Source: Candidatus Woesearchaeota archaeon
GTDB lineage: Archaea; Nanobdellota; Nanobdellia; Woesearchaeales; DSVV01
Direction of reading: 5' to 3'
DNA: 64,000 bases
Assembly: GCA_018661705.1 (NCBI GenBank)
Contig: JABJHR010000015.1
Span: 3,525 to 67,524 of the forward strand
Of this stretch, positions 1,678 through 57,220 are shown one piece after another. A program made the position numbers and the translations under genes. Under the pieces are notes generated by a model. It did no database searches, was not told the DNA's origin, and saw only the letters and a program-made list of their open reading frames with translations. Position 1 is the stretch's first letter. Each line of letters opens with the position of its first letter.

Positions 1678-1930
1678 GCAGGCATGCCCAATAATGGCCA
1701 TATAAATCAGCTCAAGGTTTAATCCCTGTCCATTCTCCATCTGGCGACCTTGCAAGCACCTGTGCAAAAGCTTAATGCTGCTCCGATCAAGGCCTGACAT
1801 GGTTCGCAAAAGCATAAGTCCTGCAAGACCAAATTTCATTGGCAAGACAAGGACCTTGTGCTAAAATATATGACGCTTACCAGGCTTCAGCTCCTACATA
1901 AGTCCGTTGTAGGTAACAGGTGAGGACTAA
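1678..1930. ncRNA. GC-rich island, candidate structured ncRNA (possibly SRP/7S-like). Strand and identity unresolved
   Basis: About 250 nt with sharply elevated G+C relative to the flanks. Multiple local hairpins, for example CCTACAtaagtccgtTGTAGG. The minus strand carries GUCAGGCC...GGAGCAGCA, reminiscent of the SRP RNA helix-8 motif. It shares a GTCCGT word with repeat families A and B. Confidence 0.3.
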
Positions 1931-2028
1931 CCACCCAGCCTAGCCTACCTAAGTACTTGGAAGAAAGATTGATTTAAAAAGGTTGTGATGATAACTGCTA
2001 TTTCGTAAGATTTTTATATTAGATAAAT

Positions 2029-4876: not shown

Positions 4877-4908
4877 TTTGTGGTTTATTTTTTTAATTTA
4901 ACACTTTA

Positions 4909-4998
4909 GCAAAAAATAATAACATGGCCAGATGAGGCGAAGCCGAGTAGGACTTTCATAGAAAGTCCGTCTGTGCCGGTGTTGTTATTGTTTTTTGC
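4909..4998 (+). repeat. Family A GC-rich palindromic intergenic repeat, copy A1
   Basis: Core GGCCAGatgaGGCGAAGCCGAGTAGGACTTTCatagAAAGTCCGTCTGTGCC. It is flanked by the inverted A/T arms gcaaaaaataataac and gttattgttttttgc. It is shared with the copies near 13996, 28489 and 57221. Confidence 0.6.
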
Positions 4999-5028
4999 AT
5001 CTTATTATCATTTTTTATAACAACATTA

Positions 5029-5904: not shown

Positions 5905-6654
5905 AAAACTAATGTTTGTTCCTGTTGTTTAAAAAGTTTATTGAAAGTAAACTTTATATATCATGAGGTTGCAGCGATAAAAATGCAAGATAAATTACTT
6001 AGTTGGATTAAACCAATTGTAAATCGGAATAGTGAACTTAGAGAGGAAGTACAATATTTAAATGTAGTTTTAGGTACAAATTTACCACACGGAGCGTTAT
6101 TTGATAATTACCGTCCAGATGCGGAACTTTTTCTTAATGGTCCAGACGGTGTTCATGGTGTTGGACATTCAACTAGAGTTTTGATACTTACTGAATTACT
6201 TTCAAGGATGTATCTTGCTAATAATCCTAATTCAATTGATATAATTGCATTAAGAGAAGCAGCAAGATTTCATGATATGGGCAGAATTTATGATTCTTAT
6301 GATTCAGATCATGGTGTTCGTGGTGCTGAATTATATTTAGAAAGGAGTAATGGTCATGTTGATAGTGGAAAAGTGGCATATCTGGTAGAATGGCATGTTC
6401 CTGATGATAAACATGCACCAGAAATGATACCAGAATTAGCTATCCTCAAAGATGCAGATGCTTTAGACCGCGCAAGAGTTCAACATAAAGGTTATGGTTT
6501 AAATCCAAAATTTCTTAGAACAAAAGAAGCAAAAAAATTAATTATAACTGCAGAACATTTATTCTTGGTTAGTCACGGATTAACTTATGTTAATGGCTCT
6601 GATGAATATAGATCAGTTATTCATGCTGCAAAGGCAATAGAGATAGTAAAGTAA
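5890..6654 (+). CDS. HD-domain phosphohydrolase
   Basis: HGVGHSTRV and RFHDMGR match an H...HD metal-binding pattern. An alternative start at M32 (about 5983) would avoid the overlap with the nop5 start. Confidence 0.5.
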   Translation: MSFLHKTNVCSCCLKSLLKVNFIYHEVAAIKMQDKLLSWIKPIVNRNSELREEVQYLNVVLGTNLPHGALFDNYRPDAELFLNGPDGVHGVGHSTRVLILTELLSRMYLANNPNSIDIIALREAARFHDMGRIYDSYDSDHGVRGAELYLERSNGHVDSGKVAYLVEWHVPDDKHAPEMIPELAILKDADALDRARVQHKGYGLNPKFLRTKEAKKLIITAEHLFLVSHGLTYVNGSDEYRSVIHAAKAIEIVK

Positions 6655-6690
6655 TTGTTTGTTGAGATGTTATAATAACAAAATTTTTTA

Positions 6691-6814
6691 TTTGTGCTTT
6701 TATTTTTTAATAATAAATATTTGTGAGAAACATTGGCTCCGCCCTGGTGTAGAAGAATTATACACTGTGTGTTACTCTGCTAAATTAGGTCCGTTAGGAC
6801 ATATCATTCACTAA
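6691..6814. repeat. Family B GC-rich intergenic repeat, copy B1 (between convergent genes)
   Basis: TTTGTGCTTTT...CATTGGCTCCGCCCTGGTGTAGAAGAATTATACACTG...AGGTCCGTTAGGACATATCA. It is nearly identical in layout to the copy at 18728-18836. Confidence 0.5.
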
Positions 6815-6856
6815 TTAATTGGTTCAATATTATTGATCTCTTGTAATGGAAAAAAA

Positions 6857-7540
6857 TCAACCAAGTATAGTTCCCTTAAACTTTTTCCCTTCTAAATAAT
6901 TCTTTATATTACCTAAATCATTGCCGTTAATGATTATTACTTTCATCTTAAATTTCATACATTTCTTTGCAGCAATTGGATCAAATGGTGTGTTTTTGCC
7001 AGGAACCCATCTTCTACCAATAATATCAAGAAATTTATTCCACGTAAGTTTTTTTAATGGTTTTGCATCTTTAAATTTTCTTGGATCTTTATCATAAACA
7101 TAATCAACATTTGTTAAATTCATCATAACATTTGCTTTAATGTTGTGTGCTAATAATACTGCATCCATATCACTGCTATGGCCTGGAGAATATCCTGCCC
7201 CAATAATTATTTTTTTATTTGTTTTAATTGGATCTTCTGGATTATCAATAACTACTCTGTGTGCATCCTTGCCAAACATAATTCTAACAAGCTCTGCATT
7301 TAATCTGGTTGATTTTATACCAACCCAATCTAAATCTACATCTGTTATTTTCTTACCAACAAGGTCTTTAGCTGCACCCTGGTAAATTCTACAAGTTCTA
7401 CCACCGCCACAAACCATTGCTGCTTTGTTTCCTTTCTTTGTAAAATCTAATATTAATTTTCTAAAATTCTTTAAGAATTTAGTATCAACTTTATCTGGAA
7501 CAATCATTGAACCGCCTAATGATAATACAACTGATTTCAT
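6857..7540 (-). CDS. pyrH: Uridylate (UMP) kinase, archaeal type
   Basis: LSLGGS...VCGGG...IIGAGYSPGHSSD matches the amino-acid kinase fold in the archaeal PyrH layout. Length is about 227 aa. Confidence 0.85.
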   Translation of the reverse strand: MKSVVLSLGGSMIVPDKVDTKFLKNFRKLILDFTKKGNKAAMVCGGGRTCRIYQGAAKDLVGKKITDVDLDWVGIKSTRLNAELVRIMFGKDAHRVVIDNPEDPIKTNKKIIIGAGYSPGHSSDMDAVLLAHNIKANVMMNLTNVDYVYDKDPRKFKDAKPLKKLTWNKFLDIIGRRWVPGKNTPFDPIAAKKCMKFKMKVIIINGNDLGNIKNYLEGKKFKGTILG

Positions 7541-7621
7541 GTTTTCACCTTTTTTAATATGTTATGTTCAATATGTTATAATAATCATAAATTTAATCTT
7601 GTATTAATAATTTTGATTAGT

Positions 7622-7966
7622 TTAACTTCCAAATCCAATCAAACTAACGCCGGCAATTATTAATAAAACTCCTACCCATTTACCCATATTCATTTTTTCG
7701 TTTAAATACTTTACTGACAATAGGCAGGTCCAAACATAAGATAATGATATAAATGGATAAAGATACGATAAATCTGCAAATTTAAGAGCAAAGATAAATA
7801 TAAGACTTCCAACAAAATATAAGAATAATCCCATGATTAATTGCCAATTTTTCATTAATTCAAGAATATTAAATTTAAATGTGTTTGAACCCTTTTTTAA
7901 TAATAAACTTGCGGTAGCGCCCATGAAAGTTGCAAAGATTGTTAAGGCAATAGCTATTTGGATCAT
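7622..7966 (-). CDS. Small DMT/EamA-like membrane transporter subunit (half-size)
   Basis: Four predicted TM helices. The start is taken at internal Met19, which gives a 4-nt overlap with the upstream paralog. The ORF track extends it to 8020. Confidence 0.45.
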   Translation of the reverse strand: MIQIAIALTIFATFMGATASLLLKKGSNTFKFNILELMKNWQLIMGLFLYFVGSLIFIFALKFADLSYLYPFISLSYVWTCLLSVKYLNEKMNMGKWVGVLLIIAGVSLIGFGS

Positions 7967-8313
7967 GATTTTGCCCCCAATACACCAACACCAATAATTA
8001 TCAATACAATGCCCGCCCATTTAAACGTATTAATTGTTTCACCAAAAACAAAATGTGAAAGTATAACAACTAAAAAATAACCTAATGCAATCATTGGATA
8101 TAATGTTGATAATTCTCCTCGTTGTAACGCTAATATCAATAATAATGCCGCAATTGCATATAAGAATAAACCAATCCATAACGAATAATTAAAAATAAGT
8201 TCTGTACTAAAAACTAAGTTTTGTGATGCTAACTTATAGAATATTTGGGCAATTGAAATGAATAATGTAGAAATTATGACCAGAATTATTGCACTTAATT
8301 TTGTTTTACCCAT
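7963..8313 (-). CDS. Small DMT/EamA-like membrane transporter subunit (half-size)
   Basis: 116 aa with four TM helices. It is a paralog of the adjacent gene, as in paired small multidrug-resistance-type transporters. Confidence 0.45.
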   Translation of the reverse strand: MGKTKLSAIILVIISTLFISIAQIFYKLASQNLVFSTELIFNYSLWIGLFLYAIAALLLILALQRGELSTLYPMIALGYFLVVILSHFVFGETINTFKWAGIVLIIIGVGVLGAKS

Positions 8314-8348
8314 CTTTTTTCCTTAATTAAACTATTGTAATTAATAAT

Positions 8349-10133
8349 TTAATTTTTAAACAAGACTTCAATCATTGCTGCAAACGCAGGTCTTGTTACA
8401 AACACACCAAATGTTACACCTGCTATTGTTGTTAATGCAAAACCCTTTAACAAACCAGCGCCAGCTGTTAATAATGGTAACATTGCAACGACTGTTGTGA
8501 AATAAGCAGCCATGATAATAAAGAATGCCCTTTTTAATTTTTCTTTCCAATTAAGGTAAAGATCTCCTTTACTTTTTAATGTTTCATCTGTTATAACAAT
8601 CTGATCATCTACACCTGTACCAACAGCAACAATTATAGCTGCAATTGCTGCTAAGTCTAATTGCCAATTTACTAATGTTGCAAAGCCCAAGATTAAGGTG
8701 ACTTCTCCAAGCATTGTTATTAGCATAGGCAGAGCAATTTTTACTTTTTTATATCTCATACTTACTACAAAAATAACAGCTAAGATTGCAAATAAACCAA
8801 CTAATAATGCATTGTTTACAAACTCTTTTCCAAGAGCTGGAGAAACAGTATCGATTTTTTCAATATTAAGTTTAACAGGCAAACTTCCAGTGATTAAAAC
8901 AGTTTGCATACTCTTCATATTTTTTACAGTATCAAGCCTTGCTTCTTGTAATGAGTTACCTGCGCCAGGTCCTGAAATTGCAATGTCTGTTTCTGCTTTT
9001 CCTCTAAGGCCTGCGCCAATTCTTAAACTTTCAACTAATTCATCATCTAAGTAAAGATCAATATTTTTACTTAAGAATTTATCTCCGCCTTCTTCAATGA
9101 TTTCAAGATCTTTAGTTGCTTCTGCTTGTCTTTCTGCTGCTTCTATATCTAATGTTACACCAAATGAGAAACTACATTGATAAACACCATCGCCAATTGG
9201 GCCGCAAGGTCTTCTATGATCAATTGGGAAACTACATTGTGGTGTTCTACATACATTTTTAACATCACTGCCGCCTCTGAAAACAGTTGTATTACCAACT
9301 TTTGCTTCAAACTTACCTTGTCTTCCAATTAAATCTTTTACATCATCTTCATTTGCACCAGCAACTTCTACAATAATATATTTATTGCCAGAAATAAAAT
9401 CTCCAGCTTCTTTAACAACAATATCACTTAAGCCATAAACATTTAACCTTTGTTTTAAGTTCGCAATAATAATTTCCATATCATCTTGTGAAACTTCTAT
9501 TTCTGGTTGTAATAATACTCTTGTTCCACCTTCTAAGTCTAAACCCTTTTTCAAGTTTGTTTGAGGTGCGTCATAAACTGTAAATCCTAAATCTTCAACA
9601 CCAATCACTTCTTCTAATGTTTTTGGGACAGTAATGACTTCTTCAATTTCTTTAGTTACAAGCTCAATACTTCCATTTTCTAATGTTTCATTAACTTCGA
9701 TTGTTTTATTTATTCTTATTTCTTCTGTTTCATTTAATTCTGTTATCTTTATTAATGGTTTTACAATTAATGTGTGTTCTTTCTTTTTCTTGAAGAATGA
9801 ATATGATCGCTTATCTCCATTTTTTTCATAATTACTTAGAGTTTCAAGATTAATAATGTCTCCTTCTTCTAAATTTATAATTGTTTTTTCATAATCTTCT
9901 ACATCATTAATTATTTTTCCATTAATTTTAGTAATAACTTCTCTAAACATTGGCTTATCTTTTGGTTCTGGGTTAAAAATTCCAGCTAAATATGCTGCAC
10001 TATCTTTTTCTACACTTCTAATAGCTACTCCCTTTGCCCATGGATTAGGATGGATTGTAATAATTGCAAATATTAATAATATAATTAGAATAATTACTCT
10101 GCCTTTTTTTATAATCTTTTTAAGGTCGCTCAT
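8349..10133 (-). CDS. secD: Protein-export membrane protein SecD
   Basis: 594 aa. An N-terminal TM is followed by a large extracytoplasmic domain and then a C-terminal six-TM bundle (LVGLFAILAVIFVV...). It overlaps the upstream secF by 4 nt. Confidence 0.75.
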   Translation of the reverse strand: MSDLKKIIKKGRVIILIILLIFAIITIHPNPWAKGVAIRSVEKDSAAYLAGIFNPEPKDKPMFREVITKINGKIINDVEDYEKTIINLEEGDIINLETLSNYEKNGDKRSYSFFKKKKEHTLIVKPLIKITELNETEEIRINKTIEVNETLENGSIELVTKEIEEVITVPKTLEEVIGVEDLGFTVYDAPQTNLKKGLDLEGGTRVLLQPEIEVSQDDMEIIIANLKQRLNVYGLSDIVVKEAGDFISGNKYIIVEVAGANEDDVKDLIGRQGKFEAKVGNTTVFRGGSDVKNVCRTPQCSFPIDHRRPCGPIGDGVYQCSFSFGVTLDIEAAERQAEATKDLEIIEEGGDKFLSKNIDLYLDDELVESLRIGAGLRGKAETDIAISGPGAGNSLQEARLDTVKNMKSMQTVLITGSLPVKLNIEKIDTVSPALGKEFVNNALLVGLFAILAVIFVVSMRYKKVKIALPMLITMLGEVTLILGFATLVNWQLDLAAIAAIIVAVGTGVDDQIVITDETLKSKGDLYLNWKEKLKRAFFIIMAAYFTTVVAMLPLLTAGAGLLKGFALTTIAGVTFGVFVTRPAFAAMIEVLFKN

Positions 10134-11059
10134 TCTGTGCTAACCTCATGTTTTTTTGCTTTTTTCTCTTTGTATTCCATATAAAGTCTTAGAATACCAA
10201 CATTTTGAATCCAAGTATTAAGACTGTCTATTATTAATCCTATTAGAAGAATTGTCATAATTTGAGTAATTACTTCTGATTTTGAAACAATTAATGCAAC
10301 AGTAACAGCTGCTAAAGTTGTTAAATTCATTGTTAAACCAGTTTTAATTGAACTAAATATTCTATCCATATAGTGTCCTTCTTTTCTTTTTAGAACCCTA
10401 ACTGTTAATAGAATGTCTGTATCAACACTGTAACCAATTAATAATAGGAAAGCAACAATTCCTGCAGTGCTTAATTTCATACCCATAATATTAACTATTG
10501 CTAATGTTACTACCATATCACTAAAGGCTGCTAGAATAACCGCAAAACTAGGAACTAATGTTCTAAAATAAATAAATACTACAACGCCCATAAATACAAA
10601 CGCAATTAACAATGCAAACAAAATATCTTTAAAGAAACTTTTTCCTAAACTGGAACCGGTCATTTCAACATTGAATAAATTATGAGCAACATTTGTTTCT
10701 TCTTCAATTGAATCTAAAAATGTATTACTTTCATCTTTGTCTGTTATGTCTGCTTCAATAATCACTGCCATTTGCTTCCCTGCTTCAGTTATTGATTTAA
10801 TATTAATATCTCTTTCAGGATATGAGGCTCTTAATGCGTTTTCTAAAATTTCTTGATCAATGAACTCATCAGTTGGTACAGTAACAACAAGACCACCTTT
10901 CAAAGATACGCCTTTGCTAATAAAATCACCAGTTGTCGCATGCTGAAATCCAAGCTGCATTAAAGCAAGAATTAGTAAAACAATTGGAATTATCAATAGT
11001 TTTTTATAATGCTTAACATAAAACTCTTTTAGCTTGTTTGTTTTGCTATCTTCACTCAT
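10130..11059 (-). CDS. secF: Protein-export membrane protein SecF
   Basis: 309 aa. A TM, a periplasmic loop of about 100 aa, and an SSD-like TM bundle. It is translationally coupled to secD. Confidence 0.7.
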   Translation of the reverse strand: MSEDSKTNKLKEFYVKHYKKLLIIPIVLLILALMQLGFQHATTGDFISKGVSLKGGLVVTVPTDEFIDQEILENALRASYPERDINIKSITEAGKQMAVIIEADITDKDESNTFLDSIEEETNVAHNLFNVEMTGSSLGKSFFKDILFALLIAFVFMGVVVFIYFRTLVPSFAVILAAFSDMVVTLAIVNIMGMKLSTAGIVAFLLLIGYSVDTDILLTVRVLKRKEGHYMDRIFSSIKTGLTMNLTTLAAVTVALIVSKSEVITQIMTILLIGLIIDSLNTWIQNVGILRLYMEYKEKKAKKHEVSTE

Positions 11060-11122
11060 AGCTTAGCAAAAACCTAATTTATTTAAATAGTTTATCATAT
11101 TACAATCATAATAAAGTACAAT

Positions 11123-11914
11123 TTGGGATATAAAATGGCAAAAAAAATACCTCCTTCAAGTGGGGAAAAAACCACTAAAAAGGCAAATTCAGCAGTAAAC
11201 AAAGCAGTTGCTGAGAAAAAACGTAGAAATGTACAAATCAGACTAGTTGGAACATCACATATTGCTAAACAATCTGTTAATGAAGTTAAGGAAAATATAG
11301 CTAAGTTTAAGCCAGATGTTGTAGCAATTGAATTAGATAAACGAAGATTACATGCACTTCTTACAAAAGCTGAATCTAAAACCCCTTTTATGTTAATATT
11401 TAAGATTGGATTTGTAGGTTGGTTATTTGCTAAGATTGGTAGTTGGGGTTCAAAGAAACTTGGAAATACAGTTGGAATGGATCCTGGAGAAGAAATGTTA
11501 ACTGCAGTTAGAGAAGCAAAAAAGAATAATATAAAGATTGCATTGATTGACCAACCAATTGAAATTACATTGGCAAGGTTTTCTAGAAGAATAACATTTA
11601 AGGAGAAAATGAGATTTTTTAAGGATTTAATTAAATCAATATTTTTTCCTAAGAAAGTAATGCGAGAAATGGGTGTAGACATAAAACAAATGGATTTAAC
11701 AAAAGTGCCATCTGCTACATTAATTAAAGGTTTAGTTAAAGTAATGAAAGCAAAGTATCCAAATGCATATTCTGTCTTAGTAGATGAAAGAAATAAAGTA
11801 ATGGCCATGAACTTAATGAGACTAGCAAAGAAACATGATAAGATCCTTGCAATCGTTGGTGCAGGACATTTAGAAGGAATGAAAGAAGATCTGGCAAGGA
11901 TGGCTGGGAAATAA
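11123..11914 (+). CDS. TraB/PrgY-like family protein
   Basis: LVGTSHIAKQS motif and an IVGAGHLEGM C-terminus, typical of the TraB family. Confidence 0.6.
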   Translation: MGYKMAKKIPPSSGEKTTKKANSAVNKAVAEKKRRNVQIRLVGTSHIAKQSVNEVKENIAKFKPDVVAIELDKRRLHALLTKAESKTPFMLIFKIGFVGWLFAKIGSWGSKKLGNTVGMDPGEEMLTAVREAKKNNIKIALIDQPIEITLARFSRRITFKEKMRFFKDLIKSIFFPKKVMREMGVDIKQMDLTKVPSATLIKGLVKVMKAKYPNAYSVLVDERNKVMAMNLMRLAKKHDKILAIVGAGHLEGMKEDLARMAGK

Positions 11915-11976
11915 AAAGGCTATTAAAAATTAGGGTAAAAATAATTAATGGGTAAATTTAATTTAAGAAATAAAAA

Positions 11977-13488
11977 TCAGGGTAAAAACACAGTAAACTT
12001 TGTTCCTTCTCCAATATCTGATTCAACATCAATTACTCCACTATGTAGTTCTATTATTTTCTTTACTATTGCTAGGCCTAAGCCTGTTCCACCTTTTTCT
12101 CTGGTCATGTAATTCTCTGCTTGATAGAATTTATCAAATAAATAAGGAAGTTTACCTTTTTCAATACCTTTTCCTGTGTCTTGAATAGAAAATTCAAAAC
12201 CTTTCTTTTGTTTTTTGGCATTAAAAATTATTTTTCCACTTTTTTCTGTAAATTTAAGAGCATTTGAAAATAAATTAATAATTACTTGCTTAAACAGGTT
12301 TTCATCAATATTAACTATAAGATTTTTTGGAATTTTATTAATAATCTTGATGCCTTTTTTCTTTGCCATTTGGTGATATACTGTTTTATCAACAATCTCA
12401 TGTAGTTTTATTTGGCTCAATTTTAATTTTTGCTTTTTTGCTTCTAACTTTGCTAAACTGAGAATATCATTTATTAGATTATTTAATCTCTCACCTTCAC
12501 TTTTTACTATTATTAATGGTTCTTTCTGTTTTTTTCCTAATTTTCCAAATTCTCCACTTAATAACAAAGAGAGGTAAAGTTTAATATTTGTAAGAGGGGT
12601 TCTTAATTCATGGCTTACAGTGCTGACAAACTCATCTTTTAATTTAGCTAGTTCTTTTTGATGTTCATATTTTTGTTTTGTTTTAGATAATTGTTCTCTT
12701 AATGTTGCTTTATCTACTAGTTTTAGAAATACAACCCTCATGAAAAACAACATTGATAATAATGGAAATGGGTGTTCCATAATAATTAATGCTTGGCTAC
12801 TTCCACCATACATTAAATAGTTCAGGAGGTTAATTATTGGGCTAACTAAGAATAGCATAAAAGCAAAAATAATTGAATTTGCATACCTCCCAGTGATTTT
12901 CCTGTGTTTTTTTGTATTAATAGAAAATATTGGATAAATGAAAACAAGGAATTTTAATGCTTCATAAAAAAAGAAACCAAGGGATTGTCTAAACCCAACA
13001 TGTGTATGGACACTTAACCAGTATAATTGAATTAATGAAGTTATAATTAAAAATCCTATGATTTGAATAAATATGTTTGATTTAAAACCTTCAAGTTTCT
13101 TTTTATGGAGTGGGTATAAAAATGCATTTGCTACTAACAGCAATGCAATTATTTCTAAAGTATTATCTATAATTGGTAAGAAAACTTCTACATTTGGGAC
13201 AGTTATATTGGTAAATGCAATGTATGTAAAAGCAATTGTAATAATTAATCTACTTATCATAAGACTAAAAAATCCAAATATTAAATATTTGAGCTCTTGT
13301 TTCCTTGATTTTCTAAATTCACTAATTAACATATAAGAAATAACAGTGAAAATAATAAATTCTACTAGGCTTTTTAATAATTCTCCATCTGTTGTGCTAA
13401 AAAATAAAGAAATTTTGTTAAATACCTGGATAGTTAATACAAGGAAAATATTCCATACAGATAATAATATTGTTGCTAAATCATTCAT
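11977..13488 (-). CDS. Membrane sensor histidine kinase
   Basis: An N-terminal region of about 270 aa with multiple TM helices. H-box VSHELRTPLT, an N-box, and G-boxes DTGKGI / GGTGLGLAI. Confidence 0.8.
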   Translation of the reverse strand: MNDLATILLSVWNIFLVLTIQVFNKISLFFSTTDGELLKSLVEFIIFTVISYMLISEFRKSRKQELKYLIFGFFSLMISRLIITIAFTYIAFTNITVPNVEVFLPIIDNTLEIIALLLVANAFLYPLHKKKLEGFKSNIFIQIIGFLIITSLIQLYWLSVHTHVGFRQSLGFFFYEALKFLVFIYPIFSINTKKHRKITGRYANSIIFAFMLFLVSPIINLLNYLMYGGSSQALIIMEHPFPLLSMLFFMRVVFLKLVDKATLREQLSKTKQKYEHQKELAKLKDEFVSTVSHELRTPLTNIKLYLSLLLSGEFGKLGKKQKEPLIIVKSEGERLNNLINDILSLAKLEAKKQKLKLSQIKLHEIVDKTVYHQMAKKKGIKIINKIPKNLIVNIDENLFKQVIINLFSNALKFTEKSGKIIFNAKKQKKGFEFSIQDTGKGIEKGKLPYLFDKFYQAENYMTREKGGTGLGLAIVKKIIELHSGVIDVESDIGEGTKFTVFLP

Positions 13489-13894
13489 TTTCTAGGTCTG
13501 GGTTACTGTTATTATTTTTATCACTATTTAAGACCTGGGTTATTACATGCTTTAATTCAACACCTTCAAAAGGTTTCATTATATAATCGTCTGCTCCAAT
13601 ATCCATGCCCATTGCTTCGTCTCTATCTTCGTTTTTAGCTGTAACCATTACTACTTTGGTATTAGCAAGTTCTGGATTTGATTTAATTTTTTTACATACC
13701 TCGTAACCATGAAGTTTTGGAATCATTAAATCAAGAATTACTATGTCTGGCTTTTTCTCTACTACTAGATTGTGGCCAGCTTCCCCATCATGTGCTAAAT
13801 GCACATCATAATCCTTTTCAAGGATCATGGCTTCTGCTTTTGCTATGTTTATATCGTCCTCAACAATCACTATGCTCTTTTTCATGATTAACAC
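13481..13894 (-). CDS. Response regulator, stand-alone receiver domain
   Basis: CheY-like layout: VEDD, phospho-acceptor D in IVILDLMIP, and a conserved T/K (VVMVTAK). It overlaps the histidine kinase start by 8 nt. Confidence 0.8.
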   Translation of the reverse strand: MLIMKKSIVIVEDDINIAKAEAMILEKDYDVHLAHDGEAGHNLVVEKKPDIVILDLMIPKLHGYEVCKKIKSNPELANTKVVMVTAKNEDRDEAMGMDIGADDYIMKPFEGVELKHVITQVLNSDKNNNSNPDLENE

Positions 13895-13995
13895 CTTTTT
13901 GTTTATGATCTTTTTCTATTCTTTTGTGTTTATATATCTTATGGAATAAAGAGATTTGTTTGAATTTTTTTATCTTTTTGTATATGGTGTATACG

Positions 13996-14094
13996 AAAAA
14001 AATAACAACAACCTTGGCACAGACAGACATTTTTTCGCTTTGCTCAAAAATATCCTACTCGGTTTCACCTCGCCTGGCCTTATTGTTATTTCTC
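13996..14094 (-). repeat. Family A GC-rich palindromic intergenic repeat, copy A4 (minus orientation)
   Basis: Reverse complement reads GGCCAGGCGAGGTGAAACCGAGTAGGATATTTTTGAGCAAAGCGAAAAAATGTCTGTCTGTGCC, with A-rich and T-rich inverted flanks. It abuts the stop of the 14086..14874 gene. Confidence 0.55.
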
Positions 14095-14874
14095 TCTAAT
14101 TAAATTTAAAAAATAAACTCTGTTGATTAAATACAACAAATATCCAAACGCAACACTACAGACAATTACAATCTTAGCAAAATTCTGCATAACTAGGATG
14201 TTTTGGCTTGTTTTAAACACAACCCCTGCTACAATGAAGTTAATCAAATAAACTACAATGTAAAATGCAATAAATGCAACTAAAAAGAATATATTAGGCA
14301 TATATGCAAAAGACTTTGATAATGATTTCAAACTAAAGCTAAAACTTTTTTTAATGCTTTTATGCTTGCAAAAACTGTAGTGGACTAAATTAACAAAAGG
14401 ATACAAGAAAAACATTAAAATTAATCCAGCTACTACAAAAATGCTTTGATGGTATTCTTGTTTTATTAAATAAGTAACTATCAATGAAATTGTAAAGTTT
14501 ATTATAATAATTATTAGAAATAATAATATGTTAAGACTCCAAAATTTTTTAAAATCAGACCATTGAAGAGGTTTTTCATTTAGATAACCAAAAACAATGT
14601 TCAGCAATTTTAATTTTGTTAGAGTATAAATAGCAGTCATTATTAATGCGTTGATTAAAACTACTATGGAAAATAAGATAATTGAGCTAAGTTCAAACCT
14701 AGTAAAAACAAAATTAGTCTGGATGCTGAATAACATTATTAATGCAATAAGTACAAGATCAACTAATATCATAAACAATATTTTGCTTGGTTTTGAGAAG
14801 AATAATTTTAATGATTGGAAAATAGTGGACTTATTGATTTTTTCTTTTATTGTAGCAAATTTACTCTTTTTCAT
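14086..14874 (-). CDS. Hypothetical polytopic membrane protein
   Basis: 262 aa with about six hydrophobic helices and no recognised motif. Confidence 0.45.
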   Translation of the reverse strand: MKKSKFATIKEKINKSTIFQSLKLFFSKPSKILFMILVDLVLIALIMLFSIQTNFVFTRFELSSIILFSIVVLINALIMTAIYTLTKLKLLNIVFGYLNEKPLQWSDFKKFWSLNILLFLIIIIINFTISLIVTYLIKQEYHQSIFVVAGLILMFFLYPFVNLVHYSFCKHKSIKKSFSFSLKSLSKSFAYMPNIFFLVAFIAFYIVVYLINFIVAGVVFKTSQNILVMQNFAKIVIVCSVAFGYLLYLINRVYFLNLIREK

Positions 14875-14981
14875 ATGTTCACCCCTTTACACATTTATTC
14901 GTGATAATCTTCTATTATATCTAATAATATAAAAAGGTATTGACAAAATTTATAAGTGATATTGGATAATTTTTATCTAGG

Positions 14982-15257
14982 ATGGAAGAATTATTTACTC
15001 TTGAGCAATGTAAGACAGATCTTAGCTGTAAAGCAAAACTTATTAAAAGGAAAAAGCTTAACTTAGCTAATATTAAAGATAAATTTGATGTTGTTACAGA
15101 TGCTGGGATTGCATTGGTTTTATCCATCAATAAGTTAGAAGTTGTTGTTCATGGTTTTGGAGAAATTGTATTCAAAACAGGGAAAAACATAGAAAAGGTA
15201 AAGTTGAAGAAAATTGCCCAGAAAGTATTTGAATGTGGATTGAATGTAAAGAAATGA
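14982..15257 (+). CDS. Hypothetical small protein
   Basis: 91-aa ORF immediately upstream of cysS and possibly co-transcribed with it. A TATA-like tttataag lies about 30 nt upstream. Confidence 0.3.
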   Translation: MEELFTLEQCKTDLSCKAKLIKRKKLNLANIKDKFDVVTDAGIALVLSINKLEVVVHGFGEIVFKTGKNIEKVKLKKIAQKVFECGLNVKK

Positions 15258-15266
15258 TCTAATAAA

Positions 15267-16664
15267 ATGGCATTAAGATTTTTTAACACATTAACACGAA
15301 AAAAACAAAACTTTAAACCTTTAAAAAAAGGTCAAGTTAGTATTTATAGTTGTGGCCCTACTGTTTATAATTATGCCCATATTGGTAACTACAGGGCTTT
15401 TTTGTCGTCTGATATTCTTAAAAGATATCTCCAATTTAAGAGTTTTAAAGTCAAACATGTAATGAATGTTACTGATGTTGATGATAAAACAATAAGAGAC
15501 TCTAAAAAAGAAGGTAAAAGCCTAAAAGAGTTTACTAAATTTTATACAAAAGCATTTTTAGATGATCTTAACATCTTAAATGTAGAAATTCCAGAATTAA
15601 TGCCTAAAGCAACAGAATGTGTGCCAGATATGATTAAATTAATTCAAACTTTGCTTAAGAAAGGTGTTGCGTATAAAGCAAAGGATGGAATTTACTTTGA
15701 TATCTCTAAACATAAAACTTATGGTAAACTTTCTAAAATTGATCTTACTCAAACAAAGAAAGGTAAAAGAGTAAACAGCGACGAGTATGATAAGACTAAT
15801 CCAAATGATTTTGCGTTATGGAAGTTTTGGGATAAGGAAGATGGTGATGTTTTCTGGGAAGCAGAGTTTGGTAAAGGAAGACCTGGATGGCATATTGAAT
15901 GTAGTGCAATGTCTGAGAAAAATTTAGGTAAAAGCTTTGATATTCATACTGGTGGTGTTGATCTTATTTTTCCTCATCATGAAAATGAAATTGCACAAAG
16001 TGAAGCTGCTTCTGGGAAAGACTTTGTTAAATATTGGTTGCATAATGAATATATTCTTGTAGACGGGAAAAAGATGAGCAAAAGTATGGGGAATTTCTAT
16101 ACTTTAAGGGATTTATTGGATAAAGGTTATTCTGCTAAAGCAATTAGATATTTGCTTATTTCTACTCATTATCGTCAACAATTGAATTTTACACTTGAAG
16201 GTCTAAAAAGTGCTGAAAACACCATTGAAAGAATTAAAGAGTTTGTTGATACACTTAATCGAAAGCTTAAATTAGGTGGGACTAAACATAATAAAGGGAT
16301 TACTAAAATTATTGAAAATATTAACATTGGTTTTGAGGAAGCAATGGATGACGACTTAAATGTATCAGAAGCAGAAGGGTTTTTGTTTGAATTTATCAAG
16401 GAAATGAATAAGATTATGGATACAATTTCTGCAAAAGATGCAAAAACAATACTTGATTTTTTAGGACATCTTGACAAGGTATTGGGGGTAATGGTATTTG
16501 AAGATGAGAAGATCCCTGCAAAAGTAATGACGTTAGCAGAACAAAGACAAAAAGCAAGGGCAGATAAAGATTTTAAGGCTGCTGATAAGTTAAGAGATGA
16601 ACTTAAAGAAAAAGGCTATGAAGTTAAAGATACGAAAGATGGCTTTGTTGTAAAAAAAATCTAA
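15267..16664 (+). CDS. cysS: Cysteine--tRNA ligase
   Basis: Class I HIGH motif (YNYAHIGNYR), KMSKS motif (KMSKSMGN), zinc/Cys ligands (CGPT, HIEC) and a C-terminal DALR-like domain. Confidence 0.9.
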   Translation: MALRFFNTLTRKKQNFKPLKKGQVSIYSCGPTVYNYAHIGNYRAFLSSDILKRYLQFKSFKVKHVMNVTDVDDKTIRDSKKEGKSLKEFTKFYTKAFLDDLNILNVEIPELMPKATECVPDMIKLIQTLLKKGVAYKAKDGIYFDISKHKTYGKLSKIDLTQTKKGKRVNSDEYDKTNPNDFALWKFWDKEDGDVFWEAEFGKGRPGWHIECSAMSEKNLGKSFDIHTGGVDLIFPHHENEIAQSEAASGKDFVKYWLHNEYILVDGKKMSKSMGNFYTLRDLLDKGYSAKAIRYLLISTHYRQQLNFTLEGLKSAENTIERIKEFVDTLNRKLKLGGTKHNKGITKIIENINIGFEEAMDDDLNVSEAEGFLFEFIKEMNKIMDTISAKDAKTILDFLGHLDKVLGVMVFEDEKIPAKVMTLAEQRQKARADKDFKAADKLRDELKEKGYEVKDTKDGFVVKKI

Positions 16665-16807
16665 TTTTTGTTTTATTCTTGTATTTGTTATTACTGTTGT
16701 TCTAATTTTTTTATGTTTATATTTATTAAAAAACATTAAACTATCGCAAAATTCACGACGAGAAATAAAAAGTAAAAAAAAATAAAAAAACAAGTTAAAG
16801 TAAGTTA

Positions 16808-17023
16808 TTATCTTTTCTTTTTCTTAACAACTTTCTTTTTAGCTTTTTTCTTAACGACTTTTTTCTTTTTCACAACTTTCTTCTTAGCTTTCTTTTTCTT
16901 GCCGCCTCGATTCATTGCTACCATAGAAATGTCTCCCTTCTTATCAACGAAGTAAAGATAGCCGCCTTTTTTCTTAATTCCAACTTTTGCTACTTTTATA
17001 ACTTTTGCCATTTTGTATTTCAC
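16808..17023 (-). CDS. Small lysine-rich basic protein (possible nucleic-acid-binding protein)
   Basis: 71 aa. An N-terminal beta-rich segment of about 35 aa (KVGIKKKGGYLYFVDKKGDI) followed by a (K)n/VVKKKK repeat tail. Confidence 0.4.
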   Translation of the reverse strand: MKYKMAKVIKVAKVGIKKKGGYLYFVDKKGDISMVAMNRGGKKKKAKKKVVKKKKVVKKKAKKKVVKKKKR

Positions 17024-17039
17024 CCCTCTAGGTTTTTAA

Positions 17040-17350
17040 GATTTCTTACGGGTTGCTAGTATTTAAATCTTTTGTTTTTTGACGAGGAGGAATTCGGGTA
17101 GTTTGCTAATAATAGTAATTATTCTTTTAATTAATGGGCATATGTCTTTTAAATTTGCTTCTAATCTATGCTTAGGTTTCTTTTAGAATTTTCTTATTGG
17201 GTATGAAAATGATTGACCCCAGCACCGAAGTACTGGAGCCAGAAAACAATGTGCCCGCTGTTTGTTCCAGCTAAAGACTTTGTTGGGGGTGTCTAGACAT
17301 TAGACGGAGAGTCTTTAGCTTTATGAACTTACAGTTTTCGCACATAAGTA
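17040..17350. other. Structured intergenic region (possible leader or ncRNA)
   Basis: Locally GC-enriched. It contains nested hairpins, for example CTAAAGACT...(GTCTAgacatTAGAC)...AGTCTTTAG and CCAGcaccgaagtaCTGG. Confidence 0.25.
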
Positions 17351-17354
17351 TGAT

Positions 17355-17648
17355 TTATGGTATTCCTCTAATCTCAATATGGTGATCTGCAATCACATTT
17401 TGCGTTGTATAATCTAAATTCCATACTTTGAAAAATTGTTTTACTTCTTCTTCGTATGTATATGGTACTAATAACACGCCTTTTCCAATATGTTTTATTT
17501 TTGCTCTCTTTACAATGCCTGATTTTCCATCTCGGCCTTTGAGGGCATAATAATATCTTACTTTATCTTTTTTTTGTAGGTGTTTTGTTGAAAAAGTACA
17601 AAGCACCATTCTTTTTCCATCTTTGATAAAGTTTTCATAATCTTGCAT
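17355..17648 (-). CDS. Hypothetical protein
   Basis: 97-aa ORF with no recognised motif. A palindromic operator-like site lies immediately upstream. Confidence 0.4.
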   Translation of the reverse strand: MQDYENFIKDGKRMVLCTFSTKHLQKKDKVRYYYALKGRDGKSGIVKRAKIKHIGKGVLLVPYTYEEEVKQFFKVWNLDYTTQNVIADHHIEIRGIP

Positions 17649-17741
17649 GTTAACTACTTTAACATTACTTATATATAAATCTTCTTATGTTAATTAAGTT
17701 AACATTAATTAGATTAAATAATTTTAATAAAGTTAACATCC
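17646..17741. promoter_or_regulatory. Repeated ATGTTAAC half-sites including a 19-bp near-perfect palindrome (candidate operator)
   Basis: The site atgttaac appears at 17646. The palindrome ATGTTAATTAAGTTAACAT starts at about 17687. A third site, aagttaacat, lies near 17731. All sit between divergently oriented genes. Confidence 0.3.
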
Positions 17742-18021
17742 CCCTCTTTTTCCCGTGCTTTTGTTAATCTATATAACACAATATTGTATCTACTATTTAA
17801 ACTTTTTTATTTTTTAATATTTTTTTCTAAATTATTTGTTACTTTATTAACTTTAATACTTTTTTTAACTTTTTTTGTTAATTAATATAACTTATTTATT
17901 TACTTTTCTATGAAACTTAATTAACGGGAATTAATAAATAATTATTCTTTGTTAGTTTAATTAACTTTTATGCTTTCTGGTAAAAAAACATATAAATCAT
18001 AGTATCTATTGTGTTAATCAT

Positions 18022-18705
18022 ATGGTTTATGACGACACAACAATAATTATTCCAACTTTTAACGAGGAAAAAAATATTGGGAAATTATTGAAGAAACTTA
18101 AACAAATTCTTCCTAAAGCAAAGATTATTGTTAGTGATGATGGGTCTAGAGATAGAACTCAGGAAATTGCAGTAGAAAAAGGAGCAATATTGCTAGACAG
18201 AAAAAGAAAACCAGTACATGGTTTAACAGTTAGTGTGTTAGATGCAATAATTAAATGTAAAACTGATTTTTTTGTTGTAATAGATGCAGATTTTCAACAC
18301 CCTCCTGAGAAAATTTTAGAAGTGGTTGGTAAACTAAGATCTGGTAAGGATTTAATAATTGGTAATAGAGTTAAAATTCAGGGTGAATGGGGTTTTTTAA
18401 GACTTTTAATCTCAAGGACTGCGTTTTACATGGGATATCTTCGTTTGATTTTCAAGAAATTTCCTAAATATGATCTTGTAAGTGGTTTTTTTGGAGGAAA
18501 AACTAAACTTGCCAAGGAAATTGCTCTCCATAACCAGAAAAAGTTTGAATTAAGAGGCTATAAAGTATTATTTGACCTTCTTAAGTATATGCCAAACACA
18601 ACAAAAGTAGATAAAGTTGATTATGAATTTGGTTTAAGAACAAAAGGTGATTCAAAACTTAGCAAGAAGATTATGTTTTATTATTTTAGGTCTATGTTTA
18701 AGTAA
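18022..18705 (+). CDS. GT2 family glycosyltransferase (dolichyl-phosphate sugar synthase-like)
   Basis: N-terminal IIIPTFNEEKNI, a DDGSRD motif and a DXD-like VIDADFQH, typical of the GT-A fold DPM/DPG synthase-like proteins. Confidence 0.7.
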   Translation: MVYDDTTIIIPTFNEEKNIGKLLKKLKQILPKAKIIVSDDGSRDRTQEIAVEKGAILLDRKRKPVHGLTVSVLDAIIKCKTDFFVVIDADFQHPPEKILEVVGKLRSGKDLIIGNRVKIQGEWGFLRLLISRTAFYMGYLRLIFKKFPKYDLVSGFFGGKTKLAKEIALHNQKKFELRGYKVLFDLLKYMPNTTKVDKVDYEFGLRTKGDSKLSKKIMFYYFRSMFK

Positions 18706-18727
18706 AAAAATTTAAGTAAATAATTCT

Positions 18728-18836
18728 TTTTGTGCTTTTTCATGAGTGACATTGGCTTCGCCCTGGTGTTGAAAAGTATTACACTGCATGTTATGCTACA
18801 ACACTAGGTCCGTTAGGACATGTCACTCACTAAGAC
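18728..18836. repeat. Family B GC-rich intergenic repeat, copy B2 (between convergent genes)
   Basis: TTTGTGCTTTTtcatGAGTGACATTGGCTTCGCCCTGGTGTTGAAAAGTATTACACTG...AGGTCCGTTAGGACATGTCACTCAC. The terminal GAGTGACAT/ATGTCACTC 9-bp stem is specific to this copy. Confidence 0.5.
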
Positions 18837-18862
18837 TTTTTAATTTTTATCTTGGGTAAAAG

Positions 18863-20470
18863 TTATTCTACATAATAAATACTCTTTACTTCTTCATACT
18901 TTTTTTCAAATACAAGTTTATTATTAGGATTCTCTTTTATCTTACTAAATAGTTCTGGTTTTAATTTATCTCTACAATCATTATCAAAGCATACAAAAGG
19001 ACCTGGTATAAAGACAATTGCTGTTACTTGTTCTTTTAATTCAGATGTATCCTTCTTGCTTATCCATTTGTCATATATTGGACTAGCTTCTATTGTAGAA
19101 AAGTAATATGGTATCATTTTAATATCTGTGTAAGCAACATGTACTGGATCTGCTGTTAATATTACTCCTTCAAAATTGTCTGGGAAAAAGTTATAGTATT
19201 CGTCAACAATCACAGGTTTTTCTGCAGGAAATGAATTATATTTTTGATAATTCATATACATTGAACTTCCAAATGAATAGATTATGAAAATGATTAAAAG
19301 AGCGATAGGTAAGATCTTTAACCATGTTTGTTTAATTGTGATGTTGTGATTTGCTGTCTTTTTGTTTGTTTGTGAGAAAATTAATTCCAGAACTTGATTT
19401 AGGCCATAACCACTTAAAATTGCTAAAAAAGGAATAATTACTATTCCAAACCTTGCTTGTTTATTTACTATAATTGTTAAGTAACTATAAAACAAAATAA
19501 TAGACAAAACAATAATTATGAGCTTGTTGTAAGTTTTATTGATTGGTTTTTTTCTTATAATCTGCCAAATAGCAATAACAAAACCAAGCACACCTAAACA
19601 AAGCAAAAGATTATGCTGCAATAATGCAATTAAGTAAAAAAATAATCCTGTAATCTTACTCTCTACGGCGTGTACTAAATTTCCTCCATGGGAAAATGCA
19701 CTAATAAATGGGTATAGGGCAGAACCATACTTGTAATAATTAAAAATAAATAATACAATTATCAATGGCAAAAATCCACTCAGGAAATAGGTAAAATCTT
19801 TGATTAACCTTTTTATTCTTATTTTTAGTTGTTTAGGTTGTTTAAATTGTTCTTTACTTAGTAAAAACTCAAGGAGTAATGTGAGAAGGCAGATTAGAAC
19901 TATCAATCCTTGAGGGTAACGAAAGATAAATGCTAATGCCGCCCCTAAACCAGCCCAGAATAATTGTTTCTTAATAAAAAAGTATGTTGCTAATAATACG
20001 AAAAATGTTGAAGGGACTCCAGTCATTAATCTTAAGCTATTATAAAAAAATAATGGTGTGATGACGTAAATTACAATATTGATAGAAGCAATCTTTTTAT
20101 TGAAGATTTCTTTTGAAATTAGATAAACTAATGAGATTGTGCCTATACTAAACAACAACTCAATAACTCTGCCGGCAATTACTGGATTAAGACCCAGTTT
20201 CCATGCCCCTCCAAATAATAATGGAATCCCTAATGGTCTGATCTCTTCCCATAATCCCACTTGGCCAGAAGAGAAAAGATATTTACCAATTCCAATATAA
20301 ACAGCTTCATCCCACAATACAAAATGATACTTTAATATGAGATGTGAAACATAAGCTACTAAAAAAGTTAATACTATAACATAGAACCAATTAATGTTTT
20401 TGACTCTTTTCAAGATTTTCAAAAAGCCTTTATTCTTTGTTTTAACTAAATTCAACATTAATATCACCAA
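18863..20470 (-). CDS. Polytopic membrane glycosyltransferase, GT-C fold (PMT/ArnT/AglB-like)
   Basis: 535 aa with more than 10 TM helices in the N-terminal two-thirds and a soluble C-terminal domain. Architecture only; no catalytic motif was verified. Confidence 0.5.
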   Translation of the reverse strand: MVILMLNLVKTKNKGFLKILKRVKNINWFYVIVLTFLVAYVSHLILKYHFVLWDEAVYIGIGKYLFSSGQVGLWEEIRPLGIPLLFGGAWKLGLNPVIAGRVIELLFSIGTISLVYLISKEIFNKKIASINIVIYVITPLFFYNSLRLMTGVPSTFFVLLATYFFIKKQLFWAGLGAALAFIFRYPQGLIVLICLLTLLLEFLLSKEQFKQPKQLKIRIKRLIKDFTYFLSGFLPLIIVLFIFNYYKYGSALYPFISAFSHGGNLVHAVESKITGLFFYLIALLQHNLLLCLGVLGFVIAIWQIIRKKPINKTYNKLIIIVLSIILFYSYLTIIVNKQARFGIVIIPFLAILSGYGLNQVLELIFSQTNKKTANHNITIKQTWLKILPIALLIIFIIYSFGSSMYMNYQKYNSFPAEKPVIVDEYYNFFPDNFEGVILTADPVHVAYTDIKMIPYYFSTIEASPIYDKWISKKDTSELKEQVTAIVFIPGPFVCFDNDCRDKLKPELFSKIKENPNNKLVFEKKYEEVKSIYYVE

Positions 20471-28346: not shown

Positions 28347-28443
28347 ATTTTAATTTTAATTTTGTTTATGCTAATTTCTTAGGTATGTTTTGTAATTTTA
28401 TTGAATGTTTATTATTTGAAATAAAAAAATCCTAGTGAAAAAA

Positions 28444-28478
28444 AGCCTGGCGGCGAGTGTAGAAGAGTATTTTCATAA
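28444..28478. repeat. Family B-like fragment adjacent to repeat A2
   Basis: gcctggcggcgagtgtagaagagtattttcata resembles the B core GCCCTGGTGTAGAAGAATTATACA. Confidence 0.3.
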
Positions 28479-28488
28479 TTTTTTTAAT

Positions 28489-28571
28489 ACAAAAAACAAT
28501 AAAGGCCAGGCGAAGCGAAGCTGAGTAGGACTTTTGAAAAAAGTCCGTCTGTGCCATTATTGTTGTTTTTT
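28489..28571 (+). repeat. Family A GC-rich palindromic intergenic repeat, copy A2
   Basis: caaaaaacaataaa|GGCCAGGCGAAGCGAAGCTGAGTAGGACTTTTGaaaAAAGTCCGTCTGTGCC|attattgttgttttttg. Confidence 0.6.
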
Positions 28572-28695
28572 GTTATTCTACTGTATTCTGAAAATAAACA
28601 TTAGGTCCAAAGGACGTGTTTCCCGTGATTTTTTTCTTTCTAATTATAATAAAATCATCAAAACATTTAAATAACTAATAACAAATAAACAACTT

Positions 28696-57177: not shown

Positions 57178-57220
57178 ATCTTCACCTTTTTTAATTCCAT
57201 TATTAATTTATAGTGTTGAA

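Follow-up and report, generated by a model that had tools for sequence, protein, structure and literature searches.

A low-copy, GC-rich palindromic repeat with intact, eroded and interrupted copies in intergenic spacers of a Woesearchaeota archaeon

A GC-rich, hairpin-rich intergenic element, called here family B, is repeated within the window, the whole 64-kb stretch of DNA analysed, as two copies (B1 and B2) and an eroded third one (B3) at 77-80% identity. The pairing is intact in B2, partly lost in B1 and most degraded in B3, and B is missing from the corresponding gene junctions of related genomes. We therefore regard B, with about even confidence, as a low-copy, lineage-restricted, MITE-like GC-rich palindromic repeat and not as a conserved functional RNA. 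The copies and their flanking genes are located as follows.

5983-6654, + strand: HD-domain gene (Pfam PF01966), 5' neighbour of B1
6691-6701, + strand: TTTGTGCTTTT leader of B1, 23 nt ahead of the core
6722-6816, + strand: B1 core (repeat search and blastn against B2)
6857-7540, - strand: pyrH, UMP kinase (Pfam AA_kinase; NCBI name UMP kinase)
18022-18705, + strand: GT2 glycosyltransferase gene (Pfam PF00535), 5' neighbour of B2
18729-18739, + strand: TTTGTGCTTTT leader of B2, 3 nt ahead of the inverted repeat
18741-18835, + strand: B2 core, the intact copy (repeat search and blastn against B1)
18863-20470, - strand: GT-C (PMT_2) glycosyltransferase gene (Pfam PF13231)
28436-28471, + strand: eroded B3, 5' part, a GCC-UGGC-GGC mini hairpin followed by GAGTGTAGAAGAGTATT
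28568-28625, + strand: B3, 3' part, TACTGTATTCTG...ACATTAG, a GTCC-AAA-GGAC hairpin (28602-28615 including the preceding TAG), then GTGT

B1 and B2 align without gaps over 91 nt at 80.2% identity (blastn, E 3.6e-19) and carry the same ordered blocks, TTTGTGCTTTT, CATTGGCTYCGCCCTGGTGT, GGTGTW-N9-WACACTG and AGGTCCGTTAGGACATRTCA. The 11-mer TTTGTGCTTTT occurs twice in the window, each time just upstream of a B copy, so that the unit of about 95 nt reaches about 107-126 nt if this leader is counted. Both copies lie between convergent genes (HD/pyrH and GT2/GT-C) in the sense orientation of the upstream gene, and B3 is flanked by co-directional genes. These data bear out an earlier note on this DNA in its description of a repeated, hairpin-rich intergenic element: the position of the two copies (both on the + strand), the block set (4 of 4 blocks in both), the gene names and the convergent arrangement at both junctions (Pfam) all stood. 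B1 is 100% identical across three samples (L001, L002 and L017), and the B2 sequence is unchanged in a second sample (L032). A coding function was rejected, as the 21-codon open reading frame of B2 is broken by a stop in B1.

The minimum-energy fold of B2 is a four-way junction (-38.2 kcal/mol) in which a 10-bp inverted-repeat stem closes two mini hairpins and one long hairpin. The helices of B2, and their counterparts in B1, are listed below.

18743-18752 and 18820-18829: terminal inverted repeat of B2, TGAGTGACAT and ATGTCACTCA, 10/10 pairs, 12/14 when extended
18754-18762: P2 of B2, predicted fold
18763-18807: P3 of B2, predicted fold
18808-18819: P4 of B2, predicted fold
6725-6733 and 6801-6809: P1 arms of B1, 6/9 pairs kept and 3/9 broken
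6735-6743: P2 of B1, GGC-UCC-GCC
6744-6788: P3 of B1, long hairpin
6789-6800: P4 of B1, GUCC-GUUA-GGAC

Against shuffled sequences, the z of the B2 fold was -5.45 for the + strand, which folds better because of G-U pairs, and -3.79 for the - strand. The covariance model (R1) scores B2 at 118.8 bits and also matches the reverse complements, with 42 and 29 bits, which makes B a pseudo-palindrome. The fold of B1 is indistinguishable from that of shuffles (z -0.51); its pairing is eroded in both P1 and P3, and all three P1 mismatches are uncompensated. All three copies keep the GC-rich P2 and P4 hairpins, and P2 of B3 retains pairing with a different sequence, a pattern that could reflect selection on structure. 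The covariation proposed in the earlier note as a check on B was at chance level: a single A-U/U-A change in P3 is compensatory (1 of 25 pairs), and with two sequences only the observed score was reached by 277 of 500 shuffles. The positions of the differences between B1 and B2 are compatible with a random distribution (clustering, p 0.11-0.16), so that they do not demonstrate purifying selection on a core, and a conserved core within a variable periphery was rejected as a sign of selection.

The stability of B2 raises the alternative that this copy is a lineage-specific cloverleaf small RNA gene with its own promoter, B1 and B3 being decaying duplicate pseudogenes. Besides its very stable fold and better-folding + strand, B2 shares with the SRP RNA of its host a high GC content against a genomic background of 30%; an AT-rich, TATA-like TTTAAGTAAAT (18711-18721) lies about 28 nt ahead of the inverted repeat, a spacing comparable to that of the SRP RNA gene; and T5 runs occur within 8 nt downstream. 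The compensatory change in P3 and the re-paired P2 of B3 point the same way. However, TATA-like words are ubiquitous in the AT-rich DNA here, B1 has neither a T-run terminator nor an aligned promoter, covariation does not exceed chance, no Rfam family corresponds to B, and the element is not conserved in any relative, even at 84.5% DNA identity. B lacks what marks a conserved structured non-coding RNA, having no orthologue in relatives and so few compensatory pairs; we consider a small RNA gene a serious rival reading, though a less probable one.

At the gathering threshold, the sole Rfam match in the whole window was Archaea_SRP, with none for B; when the cutoff was relaxed to E 10, both B regions yielded only noise matches of 11.8-17.1 bits. 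Like a tRNA cloverleaf, B has a closing stem followed by a small, a long and a small arm; unlike in a tRNA, one small arm pairs 3 bp around a 3-nt loop and the other 4 bp around a 4-nt loop, and there is no D-loop or T-loop consensus. A tRNA was rejected, since ARAGORN found 0 tRNA genes in the whole window and Rfam gave no tRNA match at E up to 10. By inspection, B contains none of the boxes or core motifs of C/D box, H/ACA, K-turn, hammerhead or twister RNAs.

The search for further copies was extended outside the window. No extra copy was found in the adjoining sequence (L001, L022-L025) or in the second sample (L032). The pattern GTCCNNNNGGACCN{20,50}ACACCAGGGCNNNGCC, verified to match B1 and B2, gave 11 matches in 185,579 species genomes, none archaeal, and these are attributed to chance because all are in high-GC bacteria. 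A 24-position pattern returned only B1 itself from the JGI metagenomes, the 5' and 3' blocks, scanned against viral contigs, produced a single chance match in coding-looking DNA and then none, and BLAST of B against phages gave no match. It should be kept in mind that the public collections scanned barely contain this genome, which limits the weight of this absence of further copies.

At the orthologous junctions, B was absent in every relative whose junction could be examined. In the sister genome (L003/L004) HD and pyrH overlap, and in a second relative 7 nt lie between them. At the GT2/GT-C junction, the genes overlap by 62 nt in the sister genome (L026/27), a 34-nt spacer separates them in L030, and an extra HD/DUF4202-like gene lies between them in L018, L028 and L019. 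L018 is 84.5% identical to the window at the DNA level, yet it lacks B. By the condition that the earlier note set for its own refutation, the idea of a conserved structured element largely fails, because public scans gave no further copies and sister genomes do not conserve the junctions. We also rejected the idea that the HD gene had moved between the two junctions: the HD gene of the window is the positional orthologue of that of the sister genome (39% identity), and it is unrelated to the HD/DUF4202 gene that relatives carry between GT2 and GT-C.

The location of B1 and B2, both between convergent genes and sense to the upstream one, would also suit a cis-acting 3'-end module, that is, a bidirectional terminator or roadblock, or a protective 3'-UTR stem-loop comparable to bacterial REP stem-loops, which protect mRNAs from 3' exonucleases. 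Such a role would be helped by the ability of the pseudo-palindrome to fold on both strands, and no run of T5 or longer separates the GT-C gene from B2, so that the GT-C transcript probably reads into the element. By contrast, the HD, GT2 and pyrH genes each have T-runs between stop codon and element, and most of their transcripts should therefore end before B. The bidirectional terminators put forward in the earlier note found no positive evidence: no hairpin-plus-T-run site was detected in 6400-7100 or 18500-19100, the T-runs of the flanking genes are outside the element, and a T5 follows the stem only on the + strand of B2, 8 nt downstream. In addition, the junctions of relatives work without a spacer, their genes overlapping or abutting, B3 lies between co-directional genes, and the structure of B1 is eroded. 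A 3'-end module thus appears quite improbable.

The third copy is informative because it is interrupted by a member of another GC-rich repeat of the window, family A, whose copies are given here together with the insert.

4906-5000, + strand: family A copy
13993-14098, - strand: family A copy
28484-28578, + strand: family A copy
57215-57314, + strand: family A copy
28472-28567, + strand: family A copy A2 with its AT-rich arms, within the P3 hairpin of B3 (A-HMM, E 5e-26)

A B-like fragment upstream of A2 had been noticed before, and a matching 3' fragment, TAGGTCCAAAGGAC at 28602-28615, is also present downstream. The 10-mer GTGTAGAAGA occurs in the window only at 6747 and 28457, and TAGGTCC-N3-4-GGAC only at three sites, in B1, B2 and B3, with 0 occurrences in 100 shuffles. 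After removal of A2, the 5' part of B3 is colinear with B1 and B2, and the B-HMM matches the joined flanks with an E of 0.12-0.37. In B1 and B2, the two flanks of A2 form one uninterrupted stretch; A2 is therefore an insertion into a complete B copy and not part of a composite ancestor. It follows that such spacers accumulate insertions. The insert is bracketed by TATT at 28468-28471 and 28564-28567, possibly a 4-bp target duplication.

This arrangement bears on the proposal of the earlier note that A and B come from one superfamily or composite element, as its diverged members or its parts, which we find very improbable. Several observations speak for it: A2 is bracketed by B-like fragments; the 9-mer mini hairpin GGCGAAGCC is common to B2 (- strand) and A1 (+ strand); GC-rich repeats of the distant relative L019 also contain a hairpin with a GAA loop and, after it, GUCU or GUCAC; and the 5' block of B2 resembles L019c (Smith-Waterman score 27 versus 16.2 +/- 2.1), a similarity that B1 does not have. 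However, GGCGAAGCC is the sole word that the families share beyond trivial ones such as the 6-mer GTCCGT on which the proposal partly relied, Smith-Waterman alignments of B with six A copies were no better than shuffles (p 0.17-0.96), and the profile HMMs and covariance model gave no cross-matches between A and B. The architectures differ as well, family A having long AT-rich (A-rich/T-rich) stem arms capped by a three-way junction, with the core GGCCRG-GCGA-hairpin-GAGKAGGA-hairpin-TYCGTCYGTGCC, and B a four-way junction. The sister genus has A and lacks B, and A2 is an insertion into B3, not its component. The superfamily is largely refuted at the sequence level. The families have some traits in common: each has a structured, GC-rich core set in AT-rich spacers, varies in its presence at orthologous sites and contains a mini hairpin of 3 bp with a loop of the GAA type. 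Family A shows compensatory changes at 14 of 36 pairs and is conserved across two genera. A 12-bit match to the RAGATH-1 hammerhead belongs to family A and was discarded as insignificant.

The series from intact B2 through eroded B1 to interrupted B3, together with the absence of B at orthologous junctions, fits decayed copies of a mobile element, the one interpretation of the earlier note that gained ground. According to this MITE-like reading, B would be selfish DNA, formerly mobile or duplicative, with copies spreading by transposition or a similar copy mechanism under an enzyme presumably encoded elsewhere or lost. Copies may have landed or survived in spacers just past gene 3' ends, where they would do least harm. 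They then decayed, B2 staying intact, B1 losing P1 and P3 pairing and B3 becoming heavily eroded before a family A element inserted into it and split it. Any RNA-level effect of B, on 3'-UTR structure or as a help to termination, would be incidental.

MITE-type repeats such as the Correia elements of Neisseria, the Rickettsia palindromic elements, the enterobacterial ERIC sequences and the SM MITEs of Sulfolobus provide the closest comparators. Like them, B is about 100 nt long and non-coding, with strong hairpin potential and terminal inverted repeats (10/10 pairs in B2, degenerate at 6/9 in B1); it lies between genes, in particular beyond their 3' ends, has filled and empty sites between related genomes, and includes decayed copies and a nested repeat insertion. 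Unlike them, it was seen in 2-3 copies, at about 80% identity, within the 64-kb window, and it has a GC content above that of its host, a leader word at variable distance and no clear target-site duplication. CTTTTT on either side of B2 (18735-18740 and 18836-18841) is weak evidence of such a duplication, as T-rich words are common there and nothing comparable is seen at B1. Another MITE hallmark, a cognate autonomous element, related full-length IS or transposase with matching ends, was not found in the window, where none of 30 proteins scanned had a Pfam match to a transposase or integrase. Active MITEs have many near-identical copies, from which the 2-3 copies seen here, at 77-80% identity, are far removed. 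The variable distance of TTTGTGCTTTT from B is not explained by simple transposition.

Bacterial REP/BIME elements are 20-40 nt single hairpins with a conserved GTAG/CTAC head, present in hundreds of copies and flanking a RAYT gene; they are mobilised by RAYT (IS200/IS605-like Y1) transposases, and in 3' UTRs they can stabilise or terminate transcripts. B resembles them as a GC-rich imperfect palindrome between convergent genes, and differs in being a low-copy, 95-nt four-way junction with four helices. It has no common GTAG head (GTGTAG in B1, GTGTTG in B2), and the Pfam scan detected no RAYT-like gene or Y1 transposase in the window.

In our literature search, no account of such elements in Woesearchaeota or DPANN turned up. 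If the MITE-like reading is right, B would be a small, previously unrecorded repeat family among the mobile and repetitive sequences of DPANN archaea, which have received little study, and family A within B3 would be a clean nested insertion, arguing that A is or was mobile. A broader and improbable proposal groups B and A with two further elements, the A-armed one of the sister genome and the 'TCATGAGACG + mini hairpin' repeats found in a more distant Woesearchaeote, as an undescribed and diverse set of junction-forming hairpin elements in DPANN archaea. These would either be moved by some enzyme in the form of structured single-stranded DNA or RNA, or act as lineage-specific cloverleaf small RNAs, with B2 as an active copy. 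B opens no long-standing question, and it illustrates that GC-rich islands in these AT-rich genomes are not automatically conserved regulatory RNAs. Better targets for RNA discovery in the same window are the covarying family A and a conserved element at 17199-17294.

Family B, a GC-rich intergenic repeat, occurs in the window (30% GC overall) at the following positions:

6722-6816: B1, between the HD gene and pyrH
18741-18835: B2, between the GT2 gene and the GT-C (PMT_2) gene
28436-28471 and 28568-28625: B3, an eroded copy in two fragments

A repeat search of the window paired 6724-6814 with 18743-18833 at 80% identity over 91 nt without gaps, and blastn of B1 against the window retrieved B2 at E 3.6e-19, all remaining matches being AT-rich noise (E of at least 0.02). 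These results bear out the earlier note's claim that B1 and B2 form a repeat pair, and the flanking genes that it named are indeed convergent at both copies. The leader TTTGTGCTTTT, 5' of the B core, occurs exactly twice in the window (6691 and 18729), at 23 nt from the core in B1 and 3 nt in B2. ENA scaffold HAWL17-1_SAMN05224534 scaffold_9 (315 kb) matches the window at 100% identity.

The minimum-energy fold over the 95 aligned columns is a four-way junction in B1 and B2 alike, with these predicted helices:

P1: closing stem, in B2 a perfect 10-nt inverted repeat TGAGTGACAT/ATGTCACTCA
P2: GGC-UYC-GCC
P3: long hairpin with base CUGGUGUWG/CWAMAYUAG
P4: GUCC-GUUA-GGAC

The fold is very stable in B2 (-38.2 kcal/mol; z -5.45 on the plus strand and -3.79 on the minus strand); in B1, where three uncompensated mismatches disrupt P1 and a fourth lies in P3, it is not stable compared to shuffles (z -0.5 and -0.9). 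Covariation is uninformative with two sequences, as one compensatory pair was observed and 277 of 500 shuffles equalled the observed score. The differences between B1 and B2 seem clustered in distal P3, a pattern that random placement fits too (permutation test, p 0.11-0.16), and therefore no selected core is claimed. In 128 kb of window and relatives, a covariance model built on B1 and B2 matched nothing but the two copies and, at 42 and 29 bits, the reverse complement of each, which makes B a pseudo-palindrome.

The motif TAGGTCC-N3-4-GGAC was found at three sites in the window (B1, B2 and 28602-28615) and in 0 of 100 shuffles, and the 10-mer GTGTAGAAGA is restricted within the window to 6747, in B1, and 28457. 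The B-like fragment previously reported upstream of A2, a copy of the second structured repeat family (family A), proved genuine; a second fragment lies downstream, and the two flank A2 in the order and strand of B. When A2 is excised, the flanks are colinear with B1 and B2 and, once joined, match the B profile HMM at E 0.12-0.37 (in 64 kb). Because the bases abutting A2 (GTATT on one side, ACTG on the other) are contiguous in B1 and B2, A2 (roughly 28472-28567, possibly with a TATT duplication) entered the P3 hairpin of a B copy that was already in place. In the eroded B3, P1 is gone, five of nine P3 base pairs are left, P4 is kept but its loop differs, and the P2 position still has a GC mini hairpin of 3 bp, of other sequence. 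Since the genes on either side of B3 (RadB-like and transglutaminase-like) are co-directional, the proposed location of B at convergent junctions holds for B1 and B2 but not for B3, that is, for two of the three copies.

Family A occurs four times in the window, and three further copies lie in the sister genome L003:

Window 4906-5000, plus strand
Window 28484-28578, plus strand
Window 57215-57314, plus strand
Window 13993-14098, minus strand
L003 12456-12536
L003 20190-20284
L003 618-714

Compensatory changes across two Woesearchaeota genera support 14 of its 36 predicted pairs, and family A is a robust, well-supported structured element conserved in both genera. Its predicted structure is a three-way junction atop a long A-rich/T-rich stem, and between the long arms of this stem the core reads GGCCRG-GCGA-(covarying mini hairpin)-GAGKAGGA-(variable hairpin)-TYCGTCYGTGCC. 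The mini hairpin is framed by a tandem GA...GA, which hints at a motif resembling a K-junction or hammerhead stem II. Where family A sits at the orthologous nop5/fibrillarin junction, its orientation relative to the operon differs, antisense in the window and sense in the sister genome, and away from this junction the position of the copies is not conserved. Together with the presence of A2 inside B3, this suggests that family A is or was mobile. The earlier note had joined A and B in one superfamily, a relationship that the sequences did not uphold: none of the A copies aligned significantly with B (p 0.17-0.96 for Smith-Waterman scores relative to shuffles), the A and B profile HMMs did not cross-match, the common 9-mer GGCGAAGCC is a widespread stable mini hairpin, and the common GTCCGT word is a trivial 6-mer. 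The physical association of A and B is a nested insertion, and a true superfamily is very improbable indeed. In L003, a hairpin element at 14890-15020, adjoining the SRP RNA gene, has family-A-like arms (CAACAACAACAATAATGGC ... GCCATTGTTGTT) around an entirely different GC-rich core.

At the HD/pyrH junction of the sister loci L003 and L004, where synteny is conserved (pyrH 69% identical, HD orthologue 39%), the HD orthologue overlaps pyrH, leaving zero spacer; the gap is 7 nt in a second relative. GT2 and GT-C overlap by 62 nt in the sister loci L026/L027 and are 34 nt apart in L030, and three further loci (L018, L028 and L019) carry a 188-196-aa HD/DUF4202-like gene between them. The closest relative, L018, shares 84.5% DNA identity with the window across GT2; the other two are more distant. 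When window 18706-18862 is compared with L018 1284-1893, the HD/DUF4202-like gene is missing from the window and B2 occupies its site, so that B2 arrival coincides with gene loss at this junction. Neither the B-HMM nor the covariance model detected B in the relatives' junction loci. Because these junctions are without B and the B1 and B2 sequences are identical across further samples of the same species, both copies are lineage-specific gains, in spacers with which relatives dispense. On L017 (JGI Ga0209558_1095252, 1 kb), the HD gene is represented by its final ~120 nt, immediately 5' of B1, and is preceded (within positions 1-305) by an apparent N-terminus of seryl-tRNA synthetase; the contig is either chimeric or comes from a rearranged variant.

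Lineage-specific gain and the decay series agree with the decayed mobile element envisaged in the earlier note, but none of the 30 window proteins scanned proved to be a transposase or integrase. The best-supported reading, to which we give roughly an even chance, is that B is a low-copy MITE-like palindromic repeat that was once mobile or duplicative and whose three copies represent successive stages of decay; B would add one small member to a known type of genomic feature. The alternative idea of terminator modules found no backing, as no hairpin-plus-T-run terminator was detected at B1 or B2; a selected 3'-end module is quite improbable. The T-runs of HD, GT2 and pyrH fall between the respective stop codon and the B element (GT-C alone has none ahead of B2), and B is thus mostly bracketed by its neighbours' own termination signals. 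For ncRNA gene signals of this genome, a useful template is:

1676-1950, minus strand: archaeal SRP RNA gene (133 bits)

The TATA-like CTTTTTAAAT of this gene is clear and lies ~21 nt upstream, and its 3' end is followed directly by a T8 run; ARAGORN found no tRNA in the window. Judged by the SRP RNA gene, B2 shows signals that an independent sRNA gene could have: a TATA-like word near -28 and, shortly 3', T5 runs. B1 has neither signal in register. That B2 is a young sRNA gene with the other copies as pseudogenes seems rather unlikely.

Across 185,579 species-representative genomes, a strict pattern fitting both B1 and B2 returned 11 loci, each a chance match in a high-GC bacterium; the source species was not matched either and is therefore evidently not part of that collection. 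A 24-position pattern matched B1 alone, on a 1-kb JGI contig, and searches of viral and phage sequences yielded either nothing or chance matches. These negatives show that B has no close relatives elsewhere in the collections scanned; they constrain B copy number only weakly, since the source genome is poorly represented there.

More promising RNA candidates than B are family A and a conserved GC-rich intergenic element upstream of a 97-aa gene and GT2:

Window 17199-17294, plus strand
L019 ~9095-9180
L003 1-100, reverse complement

This element, kept in three Woesearchaeota genera with invariant stretches GCCAGAAAACAATGTGC and TTTGTTGGGGGTGTCTAGA, has no Rfam match and is a candidate undescribed conserved ncRNA. 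L019, from a more distant Woesearchaeote, also holds a GC-rich repeat family that starts with TCATGAGACG, followed by the mini hairpin GGCTTCGCC or GGACTTCGTCC:

1339, plus strand
7290, plus strand
1258, minus strand
~11990, plus strand

The B2 5' block TCATGAGTGACATTGGCTTCGCCC resembles one of these copies (Smith-Waterman 27 versus 16.2 +/- 2.1), a likeness absent from B1. Repeat families D2, D6, D8, D10, D14 and D17 of the window are matching blocks of two large paralogous genes (44859-47333 and 48257-50350; 71-80% DNA identity in several blocks), between which lies a corrinoid adenosyltransferase gene.
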